Shown here piece after piece: positions 2,291 to 6,296 of a DNA stretch of 6,296 nt. Within the stretch, counting starts at the first letter, position 1. Every line of letters starts with the position of its first letter. The stretch is from a virus. Taxonomy: Duplodnaviria > Heunggongvirae > Uroviricota > Caudoviricetes. The position numbers and the translations under genes are program-made. The notes under the pieces were generated by a model. That model was given only the letters and a program-made list of their open reading frames with translations. It ran no database searches and was not told the DNA's origin. The stretch lies in IMG/VR virus record IMGVR_UViG_2663762839_000014, one strand, 5' to 3'.

Positions 2291-3868
2291 ATGACGGAAA
2301 ACATTCATAAGCATCGCATCCTCATTCTGGACTTCGGTTCTCAGTACACTCAACTGGTTGCGCGCCGCGTGCGTGAGCTGGGTGTTTACTGCGAACTGTG
2401 GGCGTGGGATGTGACAGAAGCACAAATTCGTGACTTCAATCCAAGCGGCATTATTCTTTCCGGCGGCCCGGAAAGTACTACTGAAGAAAACAGCCCGCGT
2501 GCGCCGCAGTATGTCTTTGAAGCAGGCGTACCGGTATTCGGCGTTTGCTATGGCATGCAGACCATGGCAATGCAGTTGGGCGGTCACGTTGAAGCCTCTA
2601 ACGAACGTGAATTTGGCTACGCGCAGGTTGAAGTCGTAAACGACAGCGCACTGGTTCGCGGTATCGAAGATGCGCTGACCGCAGACGGTAAACCGCTGCT
2701 CGATGTCTGGATGAGCCACGGCGATAAAGTTACCGCTATCCCGTCCGACTTCATCACCGTAGCCAGCACCGAAAGCTGCCCGTTTGCCATTATGGCTAAC
2801 GAAGAAAAACGCTTCTATGGCGTACAGTTCCACCCGGAAGTGACTCACACCCGCCAGGGTATGCGCATGCTGGAGCGTTTTGTGCGTGATATCTGCCAGT
2901 GTGAAGCCCTGTGGACGCCAGCGAAAATTATCGACGATGCTGTAGCTCGCATCCGCGAGCAGGTAGGCGACGATAAAGTCATCCTCGGCCTCTCTGGTGG
3001 TGTGGATTCCTCCGTAACCGCAATGCTGCTGCACCGCGCTATCGGTAAAAACCTGACTTGCGTATTCGTCGACAACGGCCTGCTGCGTCTCAACGAAGCA
3101 GAGCAGGTTCTGGATATGTTTGGCGATCACTTTGGTCTGAACATTGTTCACGTTCCGGCAGAAGATCGCTTCCTGTCAGCGCTGGCTGGCGAAAACGATC
3201 CGGAAGCAAAACGTAAAATCATCGGTCGCGTTTTCGTTGAAGTATTCGATGAAGAAGCGCTGAAACTGGAAGACGTGAAGTGGCTGGCACAGGGCACCAT
3301 CTACCCTGACGTTATCGAATCTGCGGCGTCTGCAACCGGTAAAGCACACGTCATCAAATCTCACCACAACGTGGGCGGCCTGCCGAAAGAGATGAAGATG
3401 GGCCTGGTTGAACCGCTGAAAGAGCTGTTCAAAGACGAAGTGCGTAAGATTGGTCTGGAGCTGGGCCTGCCATACGACATGCTCTACCGTCACCCGTTCC
3501 CGGGACCGGGCCTCGGCGTTCGTGTACTGGGCGAAGTGAAGAAAGAGTACTGTGACCTGCTGCGCCGTGCTGATGCCATCTTCATTGAAGAGCTGCGTAA
3601 AGCGGATCTGTACGACAAAGTCAGCCAGGCGTTCACTGTCTTCCTGCCGGTACGTTCTGTTGGCGTAATGGGCGATGGTCGTAAATACGACTGGGTTGTC
3701 TCTCTGCGTGCTGTCGAAACCATCGACTTCATGACCGCACACTGGGCGCACCTGCCGTACGATTTCCTCGGTCGCGTTTCCAACCGCATTATCAATGAAG
3801 TGAACGGTATTTCCCGCGTGGTGTATGACATCAGCGGCAAGCCGCCAGCTACCATTGAGTGGGAATGA
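2291..3868 (+). CDS. guaA: GMP synthase, glutamine-hydrolysing (525 aa)
   Basis: ORF 2291..3868 translates to [41 protein letters not shown]..., ending ...[10 protein letters not shown], matching E. coli GuaA. It contains the glutamine amidotransferase region (GVCYGMQ) and the ATP pyrophosphatase P-loop SGGVDSS. Confidence 0.97.
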
Positions 3869-3916
3869 TTAACAGCTAACTCATAGCAAATCATTCCTAT
3901 TCAGATGCCAACTCAA

Positions 3917-3947
3917 CCCTCTGTTTTTGCAGGGGGTTTTTGTTTTT
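3917..3947 (+). terminator. Rho-independent terminator of the guaBA operon
   Basis: CCCTCTG-tttttg-CAGGGGG forms a 7-bp stem with one G-U pair (3917..3936), followed immediately by TTTTTGTTTTT (3937..3947), about 50 bp after the guaA stop. Confidence 0.75.
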
Positions 3948-4003
3948 ATGTATTCATTTCTATTCACTCTATACCATATTTTTCGGCGGTACAGGTGACG
4001 GTA

Positions 4004-4018
4004 TTACCTTAAAGGTAT
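4004..4018 (+). promoter_or_regulatory. Dyad motif copy a: TTACC-ttAAA-GGTAt, upstream of the integrase stub
   Basis: One of three same-orientation copies of TTACC-nnAAA-GGTA(A); the others are at 4960..4974 and 5340..5354. It lies about 45 bp upstream of the integrase GTG start and overlaps a TATACT -10-like hexamer at 4016..4021. Confidence 0.4.
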
Positions 4019-4060
4019 ACTCTCATGCCGTCATGAAAATGGTTTCTATACGGGTGAATT

Positions 4061-4210
4061 GTGCTTACCGATACAAAATTAAAAAACCTCAAGCCGCAGG
4101 ACAAACTGTACAAAGTCTCCGATCGTGACGGGCTGTATGTGGCTGTGCTTACGTCAGGTACGGTCTCGTTTCGCTATGACTACCGTATCAACGGTCGCCG
4201 CGAAACACTG
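4061..4210 (+). pseudogene. Tyrosine recombinase (P4-family integrase) N-terminal stub, about 50 codons
   Basis: From the GTG at 4061 the translation is LTDTKLKNLKPQDKLYKVSDRDGLYVAVLTSGTVSFRYDYRINGRRETL, the conserved N-terminal arm-binding region of P4-like integrases. After about codon 50 the frame continues as unrelated sequence to a stop at 4276, and no catalytic domain is present in any frame. Confidence 0.7.
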
Positions 4211-4690
4211 GTAGCCGGGCTTCAGCGGGGCACTGTAGGTTTTGTTCTCTATCTTCATTGCCTGCATCACTGCTGACGCCGTGGCGTTGGCTACTTGGTC
4301 GGCAACCATCTTTATGCGTTCTTCCTGCGGGAGCGAGTTTTTAATGTAACTTCCGGTGCGGCGGATCTGAGGAAGAACCTCACCTGTAACCCATTTACGA
4401 AAGCGGTAGGGGATAGTGCCTGGTGTTACTGCATCGCGGCAGCGGAGGATCAGTGTGTAGAGGCCTGACTCGGAGATGATGATCGATTCTTGCTCACCGC
4501 CAGGGGTGTCGGTTGAAGCGACGCCCTTCTCATCATCATCAAGTTTTCGAACAGTATCTCGATGGTTTGCTATGCCTATAGCCCGACAAACATCTGAAGC
4601 GATAAACCATGGCTCACCATTAATGACGATTACTCGTATATCGGCTTGGGATTCGAAAGAAAAAATGGACGTGCTTTTTGTAGCTGTCAT
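4154..4690 (-). CDS. Bro-N domain protein (phage antirepressor-like), 178 aa; C-terminal ~19 codons read antisense through the integrase stub
   Basis: Residues about 10-115 (FSFESQADIRVIVINGEPWFIASDVCRAIGIANHRDTVRKLDDDEKG...IISESGLYTLILRCRDAV...FRKWVTGEVLPQIRRTGSY) match the Bro-N signature. RBS AAGG lies 8 nt upstream of the ATG at 4690. Confidence 0.75.
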   Translation of the reverse strand: MTATKSTSIFSFESQADIRVIVINGEPWFIASDVCRAIGIANHRDTVRKLDDDEKGVASTDTPGGEQESIIISESGLYTLILRCRDAVTPGTIPYRFRKWVTGEVLPQIRRTGSYIKNSLPQEERIKMVADQVANATASAVMQAMKIENKTYSAPLKPGYQCFAATVDTVVIAKRDRT

Positions 4691-4723
4691 AGTGGTTACC
4701 TTTTAGTCTGGTTAATCACCACT

Positions 4724-4739
4724 ACCGACGCCAATCGGT
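4724..4739 (-). other. Stem-loop ACCGA-cgccaa-TCGGT (plus-strand reading), sharing its loop with the hairpin at 4887..4904
   Basis: 5-bp perfect stem with a 6-nt loop. The 10-mer GACGCCAATC (4727..4736) is repeated exactly at 4891..4900. Lies in the presumed leader of the Bro-N gene. Confidence 0.3.
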
Positions 4740-4847
4740 TGGTGGTGAACTGCGCAGGGTTGGCGTAACCGGCTAAAAGGACCCGGCGCACCTTTCGGTG
4801 CCCCCACACAGCCCACCATAATACGAATGTGACCGTGCTATACGCAT

Positions 4848-4867
4848 AAAAAAACCGCTTGCGCGGT
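4848..4867 (-). terminator. Rho-independent terminator on the minus strand
   Basis: On the minus strand, ACCGC-gcaa-GCGGU (5-bp stem, GNRA-type loop; plus 4854..4867) is followed by seven U (plus A-run 4848..4854). Positioned to terminate transcripts coming from the 85-codon ORF or the candidate small RNA. Confidence 0.6.
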
Positions 4868-4886
4868 GAATGCGCCTTTTAGTAAT

Positions 4887-4904
4887 CCGGGACGCCAATC
4901 CCGG
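4887..4904 (-). other. Stem-loop CCGGGA-cgccaa-TCCCGG (plus-strand reading), sharing its loop with the hairpin at 4724..4739
   Basis: 6-bp perfect stem with the identical CGCCAA loop. Lies inside the candidate small RNA. Confidence 0.3.
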
Positions 4905-4959
4905 CACTGGCAAAATCCAGTGCCCGATTACTATGGCACAAGAGGAGTGCGATGTAAAT

Positions 4960-4974
4960 TTACCGCAAAGGTAA
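4960..4974 (+). promoter_or_regulatory. Dyad motif copy b: TTACC-gcAAA-GGTAA, overlapping the -10/+1 of the putative minus-strand promoter
   Basis: Perfect 7-bp arms with flanks (ATTTACC / GGTAAAT, 4958..4976). Same core and orientation as the copies at 4004 and 5340. Confidence 0.4.
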
Positions 4975-5002
4975 ATATAAGCACTCCACTTGGTAATTGC
5001 AA
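4974..5002 (-). promoter_or_regulatory. Putative sigma70 promoter on the minus strand (TTGCAA - 17 bp - TATATT)
   Basis: -35 at 5002..4997 and -10 at 4979..4974 with a 17-bp spacer, starting directly after the stop codon of the 85-codon ORF. Hexamer match only; a chance occurrence in AT-rich DNA is possible. Confidence 0.3.
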
Positions 5003-5005
5003 ACC

Positions 5006-5263
5006 TTATATGGTTTGTTTTCGTAATTGTTCGGCACAATAGTCGAGATGTGTTTGCAGATCCTGCATAGACATCTGTGAGCTGGTGACGTAGTTAATCA
5101 GTGCAGTCAGTTCGGCAAGTGGGCCATCGACATTAAATCCATCCTTATCGAGATCCCGGAGTAATTTCATCAAGTGCGATCCCTCCACCAGTGACCTGAC
5201 GCCTCCCGGCGTGTGAATCCTTTCGGTAAATCCGTCTTCCAGTGGATAGTGATACTGCTGCAT
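5006..5263 (-). CDS. Hypothetical 85-aa acidic protein, predicted SOS (LexA)-regulated
   Basis: ORF with ATG at 5263, SD GGAG 8 nt upstream (plus 5272..5275), and a near-consensus LexA box 20-40 bp upstream of the ATG. No family recognised from the sequence MQQYHYPLEDGFTERIHTPGG... Coding status is inferred from the RBS and box context only. Confidence 0.5.
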   Translation of the reverse strand: MQQYHYPLEDGFTERIHTPGGVRSLVEGSHLMKLLRDLDKDGFNVDGPLAELTALINYVTSSQMSMQDLQTHLDYCAEQLRKQTI

Positions 5264-5282: not shown

Positions 5283-5302
5283 AACTGTATATTTATACAG
5301 TA
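5283..5302. promoter_or_regulatory. LexA (SOS) box AACTGTATATTTATACAGTA
   Basis: CTGT-N8-ACAG with an A/T-rich spacer; 18 of 20 positions match the E. coli consensus TACTGTATATATATACAGTA. It lies in the divergent region between the 85-codon ORF (minus) and the tailspike gene (plus), and overlaps a TATAAA -10-like hexamer in the minus orientation. Confidence 0.75.
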
Positions 5303-5354: not shown

Positions 5355-5458
5355 TGTCTATTCGTGTTCACAGTATTTCTATACATATATGGTTTTTAGG
5401 GTAATAGAATAACCAGATGTGCGGCGCAACGGGTGCTGCGACTATCTGGAGATTTAAC

Positions 5459-6296
5459 ATGACGGTCTCAACCGAAATTGACCACAACGAATACACCGGT
5501 AACGGTGTTACAACGATATACCCTTATACCTTTAGGATTTTCCAGAAATCTGATTTAGTAGTGCAGGTTGTTGACCTGAACGAGAACATCACAGAGCTGA
5601 TTCTTGACACTGATTACATAGTTACTGGGCTGGAGGATACAATGGTGGCAATATAATTCTGTCGAAGGCATTGGTTAGCGGTTATCAGATTTCTATATCA
5701 CGAGAGCTTCCGGTTACGCAGGAAACTGATTTGCGTAATCAGGGTAAGTTCTTTGCAGAAGTGCATGAGGATGCTTTTGATAAGCTAACGATGCTGATCC
5801 AGCAGGTTCGAAGTTGGTTTAGCTTGGCGCTGCGCAAGCCGTCAAGTATTGCTAACTGGTACGATGCACTAAATAATTACATCCGTAATCTGAGAGACCC
5901 TAGAGAACCTCAAGATGCAGCCACGAAAAATTATGTTGATACTCTGGCTGTTGGAAATTTCATTCGAACATTACGTGTACCTGAACCTGTCAGGCAGTTC
6001 CCTGATGCAGCAATACGCGCCAACAAGATTCCTGCCTTCGACAGTTCCGGCAATCCGATTGTGGTTTTGCCTCCATCTGGTTCTGCTTCTGACATTATGA
6101 TAGAACTTGCTAAACCAACAGGTGCTGACCATATTGGTACATCATCAGGTGAAACTGTGCAGCATGTAATCGACCGACTTTATCTTCCAAATGATCCCCG
6201 TGGTTATGGCGCACTAACAGAGTCAACAGATAATACCCAAGCGTTCATTCAGGCGATTTATGCTTCACCTAGTGGAATTGTCATAAGGGGAGGTAT
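5459..6296 (+). pseudogene. Phage tailspike / tail-fibre protein, 5' part, interrupted by a -1 frameshift in a G-run at 5627..5629; continues beyond the window
   Basis: From ATG 5459 (SD GGAG 8 nt upstream) the frame reads MTVSTEIDHNEYTGNGVTTIYPYTFRIF...DYIVTG and stops at 5654. The adjacent frame is open from 5614 to the window end (over 225 codons: AGGYNGGNIILSKALVSGYQISISRELPVTQETDLRNQGKFF...). The two frames join if GGG at 5627..5629 was originally GGGG. The last part (PRGYGALTESTDNTQAFIQAI) resembles the start of a pectate-lyase-fold depolymerase domain. Could be a true pseudogene or a homopolymer sequencing error. Confidence 0.7.

Follow-up and report, generated by a model that had tools for sequence, protein, structure and literature searches.

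Two short hairpins with an identical hexaloop, located upstream of a Bro-N-type antirepressor gene in a viral DNA stretch of 6,296 nt (IMG/VR record IMGVR_UViG_2663762839_000014, Caudoviricetes; hereafter, the window), most likely serve as the two targets, a1 and a2, of an antisense RNA of the C4 type. We put the probability of this reading at roughly 0.87. It assigns the hairpins to an immI-like module of a defective epsilon15/phiV10-type prophage, in which C4 represses the antirepressor. Such a hairpin system is already known: it is an RNA switch of the P1 and Gifsy-1 style, which keeps an antirepressor gene silent. The parts of the module could be identified, they are complementary to each other, and they covary in a three-way manner; this comparative covariation indicates that the feature is under selection.

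Organization of the module

The Rfam scan of the whole window gave three matches, all on the minus strand and all within the hairpin stretch; no other Rfam family matched in the window. C4 (RF01695) was found at 4823..4738 over model positions 1-87, its score being 75.7 bits (E = 5.5e-14) where the gathering score of the family is 45. The isrK model (RF01394) matched in its full length (positions 1-77) at 4923..4848, with 60 bits against a gathering score of 50, while c4-a1b1 (RF03163) matched at 4936..4884 with 27.9 bits, under its gathering score of 46.7.

Read 5' to 3' along the minus strand, the module consists of a promoter-like site, IsrK hairpin 1, the a1 hairpin, b1, a terminator, C4, the a2 hairpin, b2 and the Bro-N AUG (Table 1). 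The names of the a and b boxes follow the annotated P1 record. The a' box of C4 is exactly complementary to both a1 and a2 over 7 nt, and the b' box to both b1 and b2 over 8 nt; a1 is separated from b1 by 9 nt, and a2 from b2 by 21 nt. The predicted promoter would place the transcription start near 4923, which is the first base of the isrK match.

Much of this layout had been noticed in a preliminary description of the window. Both hairpins with their shared 10-mer, as well as the minus-strand terminator between them, are indeed present, and the claim that a small terminated RNA contains one hairpin, while the other belongs to the Bro-N leader, agrees with the position of a1 within IsrK and of a2 before Bro-N. 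A nearby GC-rich hairpin with a GNRA loop, also pointed out there, turned out to be C4 hairpin 1. Finally, the segment TTGGCGT, which had been proposed to pair with the hairpin loops, is the a' box of C4. Such pairing, complete in all cells of the alignment of 38 distinct close relatives (see below), would be the mechanism itself.

Table 1. Features of the putative antirepressor control module (window coordinates)
Feature	Position	Strand	Remarks
Promoter-like site TTTACA-17-tgCATAGT	4930..4958	minus	9/12 matches with TG extension; putative function
IsrK-like leader RNA	4848..4923	minus	Three hairpins, the last being a Rho-independent terminator; homologous to the P1 c4 a1-b1 leader
IsrK hairpin 1, GCACUGG-AUUUUG-CCAGUGC	4904..4923	minus	100% of cells paired in the alignment
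a1 hairpin, CCGGGA-UUGGCG-UCCCGG	4887..4904	minus	DNA CCGGGA-cgccaa-TCCCGG
a1 box UUGGCGU	4898..4892	minus
b1 box CUAAAAGG	4875..4882	minus	Complementary to the C4 b' loop
Intrinsic terminator, ACCGC-GCAA-GCGGU + U7 (ACCGCGCAAGCGGT+T7)	4867..4848	minus	Part of the isrK model; also in the fold
C4-type antisense RNA	4738..4823	minus	RF01695 match and fold
C4 outer stem	4818..4802 with 4759..4743	minus
C4 hairpin 1, GCACC-GAAA-GGUGC	4801..4788	minus	GNRA loop
C4 hairpin 2	4787..4768	minus	Large loop holding b'
b' box CCUUUUAG	4773..4780	minus	In the C4 hairpin-2 loop
a' box ACGCCAA	4760..4766	minus	Plus-strand TTGGCGT; single-stranded in the C4 internal loop, followed by CCC
a2 hairpin, ACCGA-UUGGCG-UCGGU	4724..4739	minus	DNA ACCGA-cgccaa-TCGGT; inner stem covaries
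a2 box UUGGCGU	4734..4728	minus
b2 box CUAAAAGG	4706..4699	minus	Covers the Shine-Dalgarno sequence AAGG(U), 7 nt before AUG 4690
Bro-N-type antirepressor, regulated gene	4154..4690	minus	PF02498, 75 bits; PHROG 'anti-repressor Ant', 9e-56

The predicted fold of C4 (-45.2 kcal/mol, z = -4.6) consists of a long closing stem around the tetraloop hairpin, the second hairpin and the single-stranded a' stretch. Hairpin 1, with its GAAA loop, and a' belong to one structured RNA of 86 nt. This structure is specific to the minus-strand reading, as the stem of C4 includes G-U pairs. By analogy with the annotated P1 C4, which is 77 nt long, the mature RNA probably spans about 4814..4741. A GGU motif is found at 4814..4812, inside the conserved UAUGGUGGG.

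In the RNA folds, an extra U-G pair closes the hexaloops of both the a1 and a2 hairpins, leaving a UGGC tetraloop. The full a2 hairpin is larger than its core, UCACCAC..ACCGA-UUGGCG-UCGGU..GUGGUGA (4748..4716; -17 kcal/mol, z = -3.6). Its outer stem, which joins 4748..4742 with 4722..4716 in the unprocessed transcript, competes with the closing stem of C4. The outer-stem complementarity was present in 19 of the 21 loci described below, the exceptions being APSE-7 and P1.

Considered as repeats within the window, the two sets of boxes differ in strength. The 10-mer GACGCCAATC has exactly two copies (4727..4736 and 4891..4900) and is weak statistically, since at least 2 matches, allowing up to one mismatch, were reached in 16 of 200 shuffles. 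A second repeat pair is formed by CCTTTTAGT at 4699..4707 and 4875..4883, and CTAAAAGG at 4773..4780 is its complement; against 0.15 matches expected for this set, 3 were observed, a number reached in only 1 of 200 shuffles. The b1/b2/b' boxes are absent from the preliminary description.

The predicted energies of isolated box duplexes are -15.2 and -10.3 kcal/mol for the a boxes and -9.7 and -9.2 kcal/mol for the b boxes. Cofolding of C4 with IsrK or with the leader (RNAcofold/duplexfold) showed no advantage over shuffles (ddG of -1.8 and -0.6 kcal/mol), with an algorithm that cannot score loop-loop pseudoknot docking. This null result carries little weight because loop-loop docking onto folded partners lies outside the method.

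Covariation among close relatives

The region is of the type found in phiV10/TL-2011b (Uetakevirus) prophages. Among 5426 complete E. coli genomes, 540 contain it, and many phages do as well. We collected 80 viral contigs with Bro-N relatives, which yielded 40 distinct regulatory regions (78-97% identity); together with the window and one Klebsiella phage, these composed an alignment of 42 rows, 38 of them distinct.

Standard pairs were found in 100% of 586 cells for a1:a' and b1:b' taken together, and 7 of the pairs had changed on both sides. For a1:a' alone, pairing was likewise complete among the 38 distinct relatives, with both sides changed at 5 of 7 pairs. The downstream site behaved in the same way, a':a2 being paired in 100% of 266 cells and changed on both sides at 5 of 7 pairs. 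One class of relatives carries an extra G in b', matched by an extra C in both b1 and b2. The outer stem of C4 was 100% paired as well, and 3 of its pairs showed compensatory changes. For four of five covariation measures, the observed values were reached by none of 500 shuffles, and when the partner was slid by 1-3 columns as a control, pairing was only 17-46%.

Such evidence leaves a vanishingly small probability for a chance 10-mer repeat with fortuitous flanking palindromes. The repeat by itself is only marginally unusual within the window, which a chance origin would allow, but the Rfam matches above the gathering score, the three-way covariation and the occurrence in hundreds of E. coli genomes and many phages speak against coincidence. 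We therefore regard the chance repeat as refuted by the comparative data.

Distant relatives and diversity of the boxes

A wider comparison comprised 21 loci from Uetakevirus-type prophages, Stx/lambdoid phages, SfV, cdtI, APSE-7, a Klebsiella phage, a Salmonella houtenae prophage and P1. isrK followed by C4 in tandem was found in all 19 other loci scanned with Rfam, as well as in Gifsy-1. At each of these loci, complementarity to one upstream and one downstream pair of boxes resides in the same two segments of C4. A search for the 14-mer CGGGATTGGCGTCC across genome contigs gave, among the matches listed, only chance ones in unrelated phyla.

The sequences of the boxes are diverse. There are 10 different a' 7-mers across the 21 loci, at least 10 types of a boxes and at least 15 types of b boxes, the loop variants including UUGGCGU, UUUGCAC, UUGGUCU, UUGAGAC, UUAGCAC, UUCGCAG, UUGCUAC, UUCGAAC and UUGACAG. 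The a box changes in concert in a1, a' and a2, and the b boxes do likewise. On average, a' matches 6.9 of 7 positions in its own a1 and a2, versus 3.6 of 7 in the boxes of loci with a different a'. Of the two stems, that of a1 is conserved, while that of a2 differs widely and yet is still paired. Hence, it is the display of an a box in a loop that is conserved, and not any particular loop sequence.

These observations divide the earlier proposal that the hairpins are loop-recognized elements under selection, identifiable in relatives by compensatory stems around an invariant loop. Recognition elements they are, as the covariation indicates, and the a2 stem does stay paired; the loop, by contrast, is not invariant, being represented by at least 10 different 7-mers that vary with a'. 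Since the loop varies in concert with a', it appears to be read by RNA rather than by protein. Thus, we consider it very unlikely that the hairpins serve a protein that controls terminator read-through or processing, be it an N-like antiterminator, a repressor resembling a coat protein or a nuclease. The same loop on different stems at both sides of a terminator would suit such a protein, and read-through of the IsrK terminator is known in Gifsy-1 (PMC4825925), but the loop differs among relatives and always matches the co-resident a', while the b boxes are unstructured, with b2 lying on the Shine-Dalgarno site. In addition, nothing resembling boxA was found up to 1 kb from the hairpins, and the window contains neither an N-like nor a coat-like gene. 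The likening of the hairpins to boxB or to coat-protein and nuclease recognition sites is therefore rejected, and so is the idea of an antitermination signal, the known action of such modules being translational repression at the ribosome-binding site.

Another possibility would be that the hairpins work as DNA operators or cruciforms bound by a protein such as LexA or the product of ORF85. As DNA, each hairpin forms a perfect inverted repeat, and there is a true LexA box at 5285..5300, at a distance of 385 bp. Still, this seems extremely unlikely: the stems change with pairing kept, G-U pairs arise on the minus-strand reading only, and the arms differ between the two copies, so there is no common half-site, the conserved part being an asymmetric loop.

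Proposed mechanism

Taking the layout of the module together with what is known of P1 and Gifsy-1, we propose the following scenario. One minus-strand transcript starting near 4923 would carry a1, b1, the terminator, C4, a2, b2 and the antirepressor gene. C4 lies downstream of the IsrK terminator, and therefore its synthesis would need read-through past that terminator. C4 would then be cut out of the read-through transcript, probably by RNase P at the conserved GGU, if processing follows the P1 example. Docking of a', exposed in the C4 internal loop, on the a2 loop and pairing of b', in the hairpin-2 loop, with b2 would block ribosome binding, so that no antirepressor is made and lysogeny or immunity is kept. 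The a1 and b1 boxes would bind the same two C4 boxes in cis within the long transcript, and the short terminated IsrK RNA would act in trans as a competitor, freeing a2 and b2 and turning antirepressor translation on. We lean slightly towards this decoy role of a1 and b1 in the short IsrK.

An experimental counterpart is Gifsy-1, where both a1:a' pairing and trans activation by IsrK have been demonstrated (PMC4825925). IsrK supplied in trans raised anrP translation ~139-fold, while IsrK with G28A or G31A was inactive, and the compensatory mutants G28A/C162U and G31A/C159U affect precisely the base pairs of a1:a' (PMC4825925). Hfq binding, the coexistence of short and read-through isoforms of IsrK and the activation in trans are known for Gifsy-1 only (PMC4825925). 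It is also important to note that basal expression increases when a1 is mutated in cis (PMC4825925, Table 1D). This is not expected of a pure decoy, and so a1 and b1 probably have an additional role in cis, in folding or processing. With G28A+C162U and G31A+C159U, the double mutants, 224 and 327 units were measured versus a basal 4 (PMC4825925); judging from Table 1D, such values above basal would fit a need for a':a2 pairing.

The same locus can be interpreted differently. In the structural switch with a leader ORF (Hershko-Shalev et al. 2016), pairing of a1-b1 with a'-b' in cis ('structure A') locks the mRNA in an untranslatable state; IsrK in trans displaces the lock, and a leader ORF starting from the AUG of the C4 5' arm is translated, coupling into the antirepressor, so that free antisense C4 is not the main actor. 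In the minimum-free-energy fold of the 256-nt read-through RNA, a1-b1 are indeed paired in cis with a'-b', the window does contain an ORF of 35 codons (AUG 4816 to TAA 4714..4712), and the switch is backed in Gifsy-1 by genetics and native gels (PMC4825925). The leader ORF, however, is inconstant. In 4 of the 5 closest box classes, and also in the Klebsiella phage, APSE-7 and P1, a stop codon inside C4 limits it to 14-17 codons; others have 31-64 codons, and in SfV-type loci the ORF forms an in-frame fusion with the next gene. In the window, 21 nt separate its end from the Bro-N AUG, whereas the leader ORF of Gifsy-1, with 45 codons, overlaps the anrP AUG. Moreover, the structural switch leaves the covariation of a2 and b2 with a' and b' unexplained, and the Gifsy-1 double mutants did not come back to basal, as is expected if a':a2 represses. 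Overall, we consider the structural switch unlikely as a replacement for antisense control by C4, with which it is not mutually exclusive. We also considered the leader ORF as a conserved protein and rejected this: it has no Pfam match, and neither its length nor its frame is conserved.

Antirepressor gene and prophage context

The Bro-N gene has lost its 3' end and is joined, at about 4210, to the remnant of an integrase gene, the Bro-N product having 178 aa here versus 194 aa in phiV10 and 231 aa in one E. coli prophage. On the other side of the junction, guaA ends at 3868 and the integrase gene starts at 4061. Homology to the guaA-integrase region of E. coli ends near 4220, ~53 codons into the integrase, and phage homology starts at 4210. 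The exact integrase/Bro-N junction was present in no complete E. coli genome searched with the right half of the window. Neither repressor nor structural genes were found in the window, and no icd-like ORF lies between C4 and the antirepressor. The window is a decayed prophage next to guaA, in which the RNA module itself is intact. Given the truncated Bro-N gene and the absence of repressor and structural genes from the window, the switch may be a relic.

Implications

In practical terms, the stretch can be annotated as isrK and C4 with a1/b1 and a2/b2 targets before an antirepressor gene. Such an annotation explains its dense RNA structure, and no new system of protein-RNA recognition is needed. 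The comparison also brings out that the isrK and c4-a1b1 families of Rfam overlap on one leader, that orf45/STnc1160 of Gifsy-1 is a C4 RNA, and that the boxes diversify in three places at once. Taken together, this supplies a natural set of orthogonal RNA-RNA specificity pairs as well as a testable link between the P1 and Gifsy-1 models.

It is tempting to go further and to equate IsrK with the a1-b1 leader of P1, both being anti-antisense decoys of C4 in one three-part circuit, with the a and b boxes as an immunity code and the relic acting in trans. We offer this generalization tentatively and would not bet on it at even odds. If it is true, the P1 immI operon and the Gifsy-1 IsrK switch are one widespread decoy/antisense/target circuit, the freely recombining a and b boxes represent an RNA immunity code among temperate enterobacterial phages, and the relic described here could still emit C4 and IsrK against incoming phages of the same box class.

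Comparison with known systems

The immI operon of P1 and P7, with its c4 antisense RNA, the a1-b1 and a2-b2 targets, icd and ant, was reportedly described by Citron and Schuster in 1990. Heteroimmunity of P1 and P7 rests on covarying antisense and target boxes. The annotated P1 record contains a1 UUGACAG, b1 GUUAGUGC, C4, a2 UUGACAG, b2 GUUAGUGA and icd. The order and positions of a1, b1, c4, a2 and b2 are as in the window, and the a-to-b spacing is similar (7 and 22 nt versus 9 and 21 nt here). In both cases, a' lies in an internal loop before CCC and b' in the loop of hairpin 2, an a box is held in the loop of a small hairpin, b2 lies on the ribosome-binding site, an antirepressor gene follows downstream, and a terminator-like hairpin separates b1 from C4. 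When compared with the isrK model, the P1 leader matched over its full length, the terminator-like hairpin included, at 35 bits, under the gathering score of 50. From this full-length match we conclude that the isrK and c4-a1b1 models describe overlapping parts of one leader. The two loci differ in their boxes (UUGACAG and GUUAGUGA in P1 versus UUGGCGU and CUAAAAGG here) and in icd, which is present in P1, while here no icd-like ORF intervenes and b2 lies directly on the Bro-N Shine-Dalgarno site. Furthermore, P1 is a plasmid prophage with a C1 operator, and the window holds a remnant of a Uetakevirus podovirus-type phage with a LexA box and ORF85.

The Gifsy-1 locus has the same a box (UUGGCGU) and the same a' (ACGCCAA) as the window. 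Its isrK match is above the gathering score, and even the numbering and bases agree, with G28/G31 in a1 and C159/C162 in a', ~130 nt apart. The a2 hairpin core, CCGA-UUGGCG-UCGG, is shared too, an antirepressor gene lies downstream, and a promoter, TTGACA-17-TATATT, occupies the position equivalent to the promoter-like site of the window. isrK and C4 are found there between antQ and anrP. In terms of sequence, C4 coincides with orf45/STnc1160 of Gifsy-1, the AUG of orf45 at nt 107 being that contained in UAUGGUGGG, the conserved sequence of the C4 5' arm. Apart from the leader ORF (see above), the differences concern the b boxes (AUCACCG in Gifsy-1) and the neighbours, antQ upstream and isrJ downstream. 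The papers cited here keep these elements apart. The Gifsy-1 paper likens the locus to the P4 CI RNA and leaves P1 C4 unmentioned (PMC4825925), IsrK and c4 have an entry each in a review of 2025 (PMC12197685), and a paper on APSE gives both Rfam matches beside a Bro-N gene without relating them to each other (PMC7313666).

Likeness to other phage systems is more partial. The P4 CI RNA (seqA, seqB, seqC) is also a small RNA, processed from the leader of its own operon and pairing with complementary sites on either side of itself, upstream and downstream, but it acts via premature transcription termination, and its sequence and fold are unrelated as far as tested. The lambda nut site (boxA-boxB, recognized by N) and MS2-type operators share with our hairpins their small size, a specificity borne by the loop and a location near a terminator; in contrast to them, the loop described here varies and is apparently read by RNA, and the output would be translational repression. 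Finally, the sar RNA of P22 is likewise an antisense RNA that blocks translation of an antirepressor (ant) at the ribosome-binding site. It is, however, encoded on the opposite strand and fully complementary to its target, whereas C4 comes from the same strand, upstream of the gene, and would recognize its target through two short boxes.

Alternative Pairing and Gene Calls in the C4 Region

The segment UCACCAC[C], which forms the 3' arm of the closing stem of the C4 antisense RNA, is complementary to GGUGGUGA, directly downstream of the a2 hairpin, and this complementarity was found in 19 of the 21 loci of our comparison set. The unprocessed transcript thereby has a second, conserved way to fold that competes with C4, and this might influence 3' processing or serve as a folding switch.

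The 35-codon ORF starting at the C4 AUG occupies the same position as 'orf45' of Gifsy-1. Neither the length nor the frame of this ORF is conserved among relatives, and in most close classes, as well as in P1, it comprises 14–17 codons. In Ayreon, SfV, cdtI and two Stx phages (L088, L089, L092, L094 and L096), the C4 AUG is in frame with the downstream gene, and long deposited CDSs, labelled 'immunity region', 'transcriptional regulator' or 'antirepressor', span the C4 match and, in all but one case, also cross the isrK match. These CDSs are probably over-extended gene calls.

Coordinates of features in and around the isrK-C4-ant module
Feature	Coordinates	Strand	Remarks
Integrase/Bro-N deletion junction	3868..4220 and 4154..4690		integrase remnant joined to Bro-N near 4210
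35-codon ORF	4816..4712	minus	AUG within C4 5' arm
Alternative stem	4748..4742 with 4722..4716		complementarity; C4 closing-stem 3' arm with segment past a2
Second promoter-like site	5002..4974	minus	TTGCAA-17-TATATT
ORF85 (85 aa)	5263..5006	minus	phrog_450 (unknown function)
LexA/SOS box	5285..5300		CTGTATATTTATACAG; one mismatch to CTGT(AT)4ACAG
Tail-fibre or tailspike region	5417..6296	plus	gene start near 5456 by phiV10 homology

Surroundings of the Module

A near-consensus LexA/SOS box, for which the chance expectation at one mismatch is 0.01, lies immediately upstream of ORF85, whose product also shows a weak match to an 'anti-repressor' PHROG. Moreover, 47 of the 80 related viral loci carry a CTGT-N8-ACAG box ahead of their Bro-N gene; therefore, the minus-strand unit may be under SOS control exerted upstream of isrK-C4-ant.

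On the other side of the module, the prophage has suffered a deletion. A remnant (~53 codons; plus strand, start at 4061) of a tyrosine integrase gene that normally adjoins guaA in ~545 E. coli genomes is fused to the 3'-truncated Bro-N gene in opposite orientation, and this exact junction was found in no complete E. coli genome. The reading frame of the tail-fibre or tailspike gene is broken around 5614..5656, and nothing in complete E. coli genomes matches the sequence past ~5985; the region is a pseudogene, or else a novel receptor-binding domain running off the window.

Comparison with Phage P1

The a1-b1 leader of P1 (L003 3230..3311) matched the isrK model of Rfam from end to end, with 35 bits and E = 5e-6, below the gathering score, and the match takes in a terminator-like hairpin ahead of c4. 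This points to P1 as another possible source of a short IsrK-like RNA. Finally, the second promoter-like site precedes that of IsrK by ~45 nt and recalls the tandem promoters P1c4 and P2c4 of P1.
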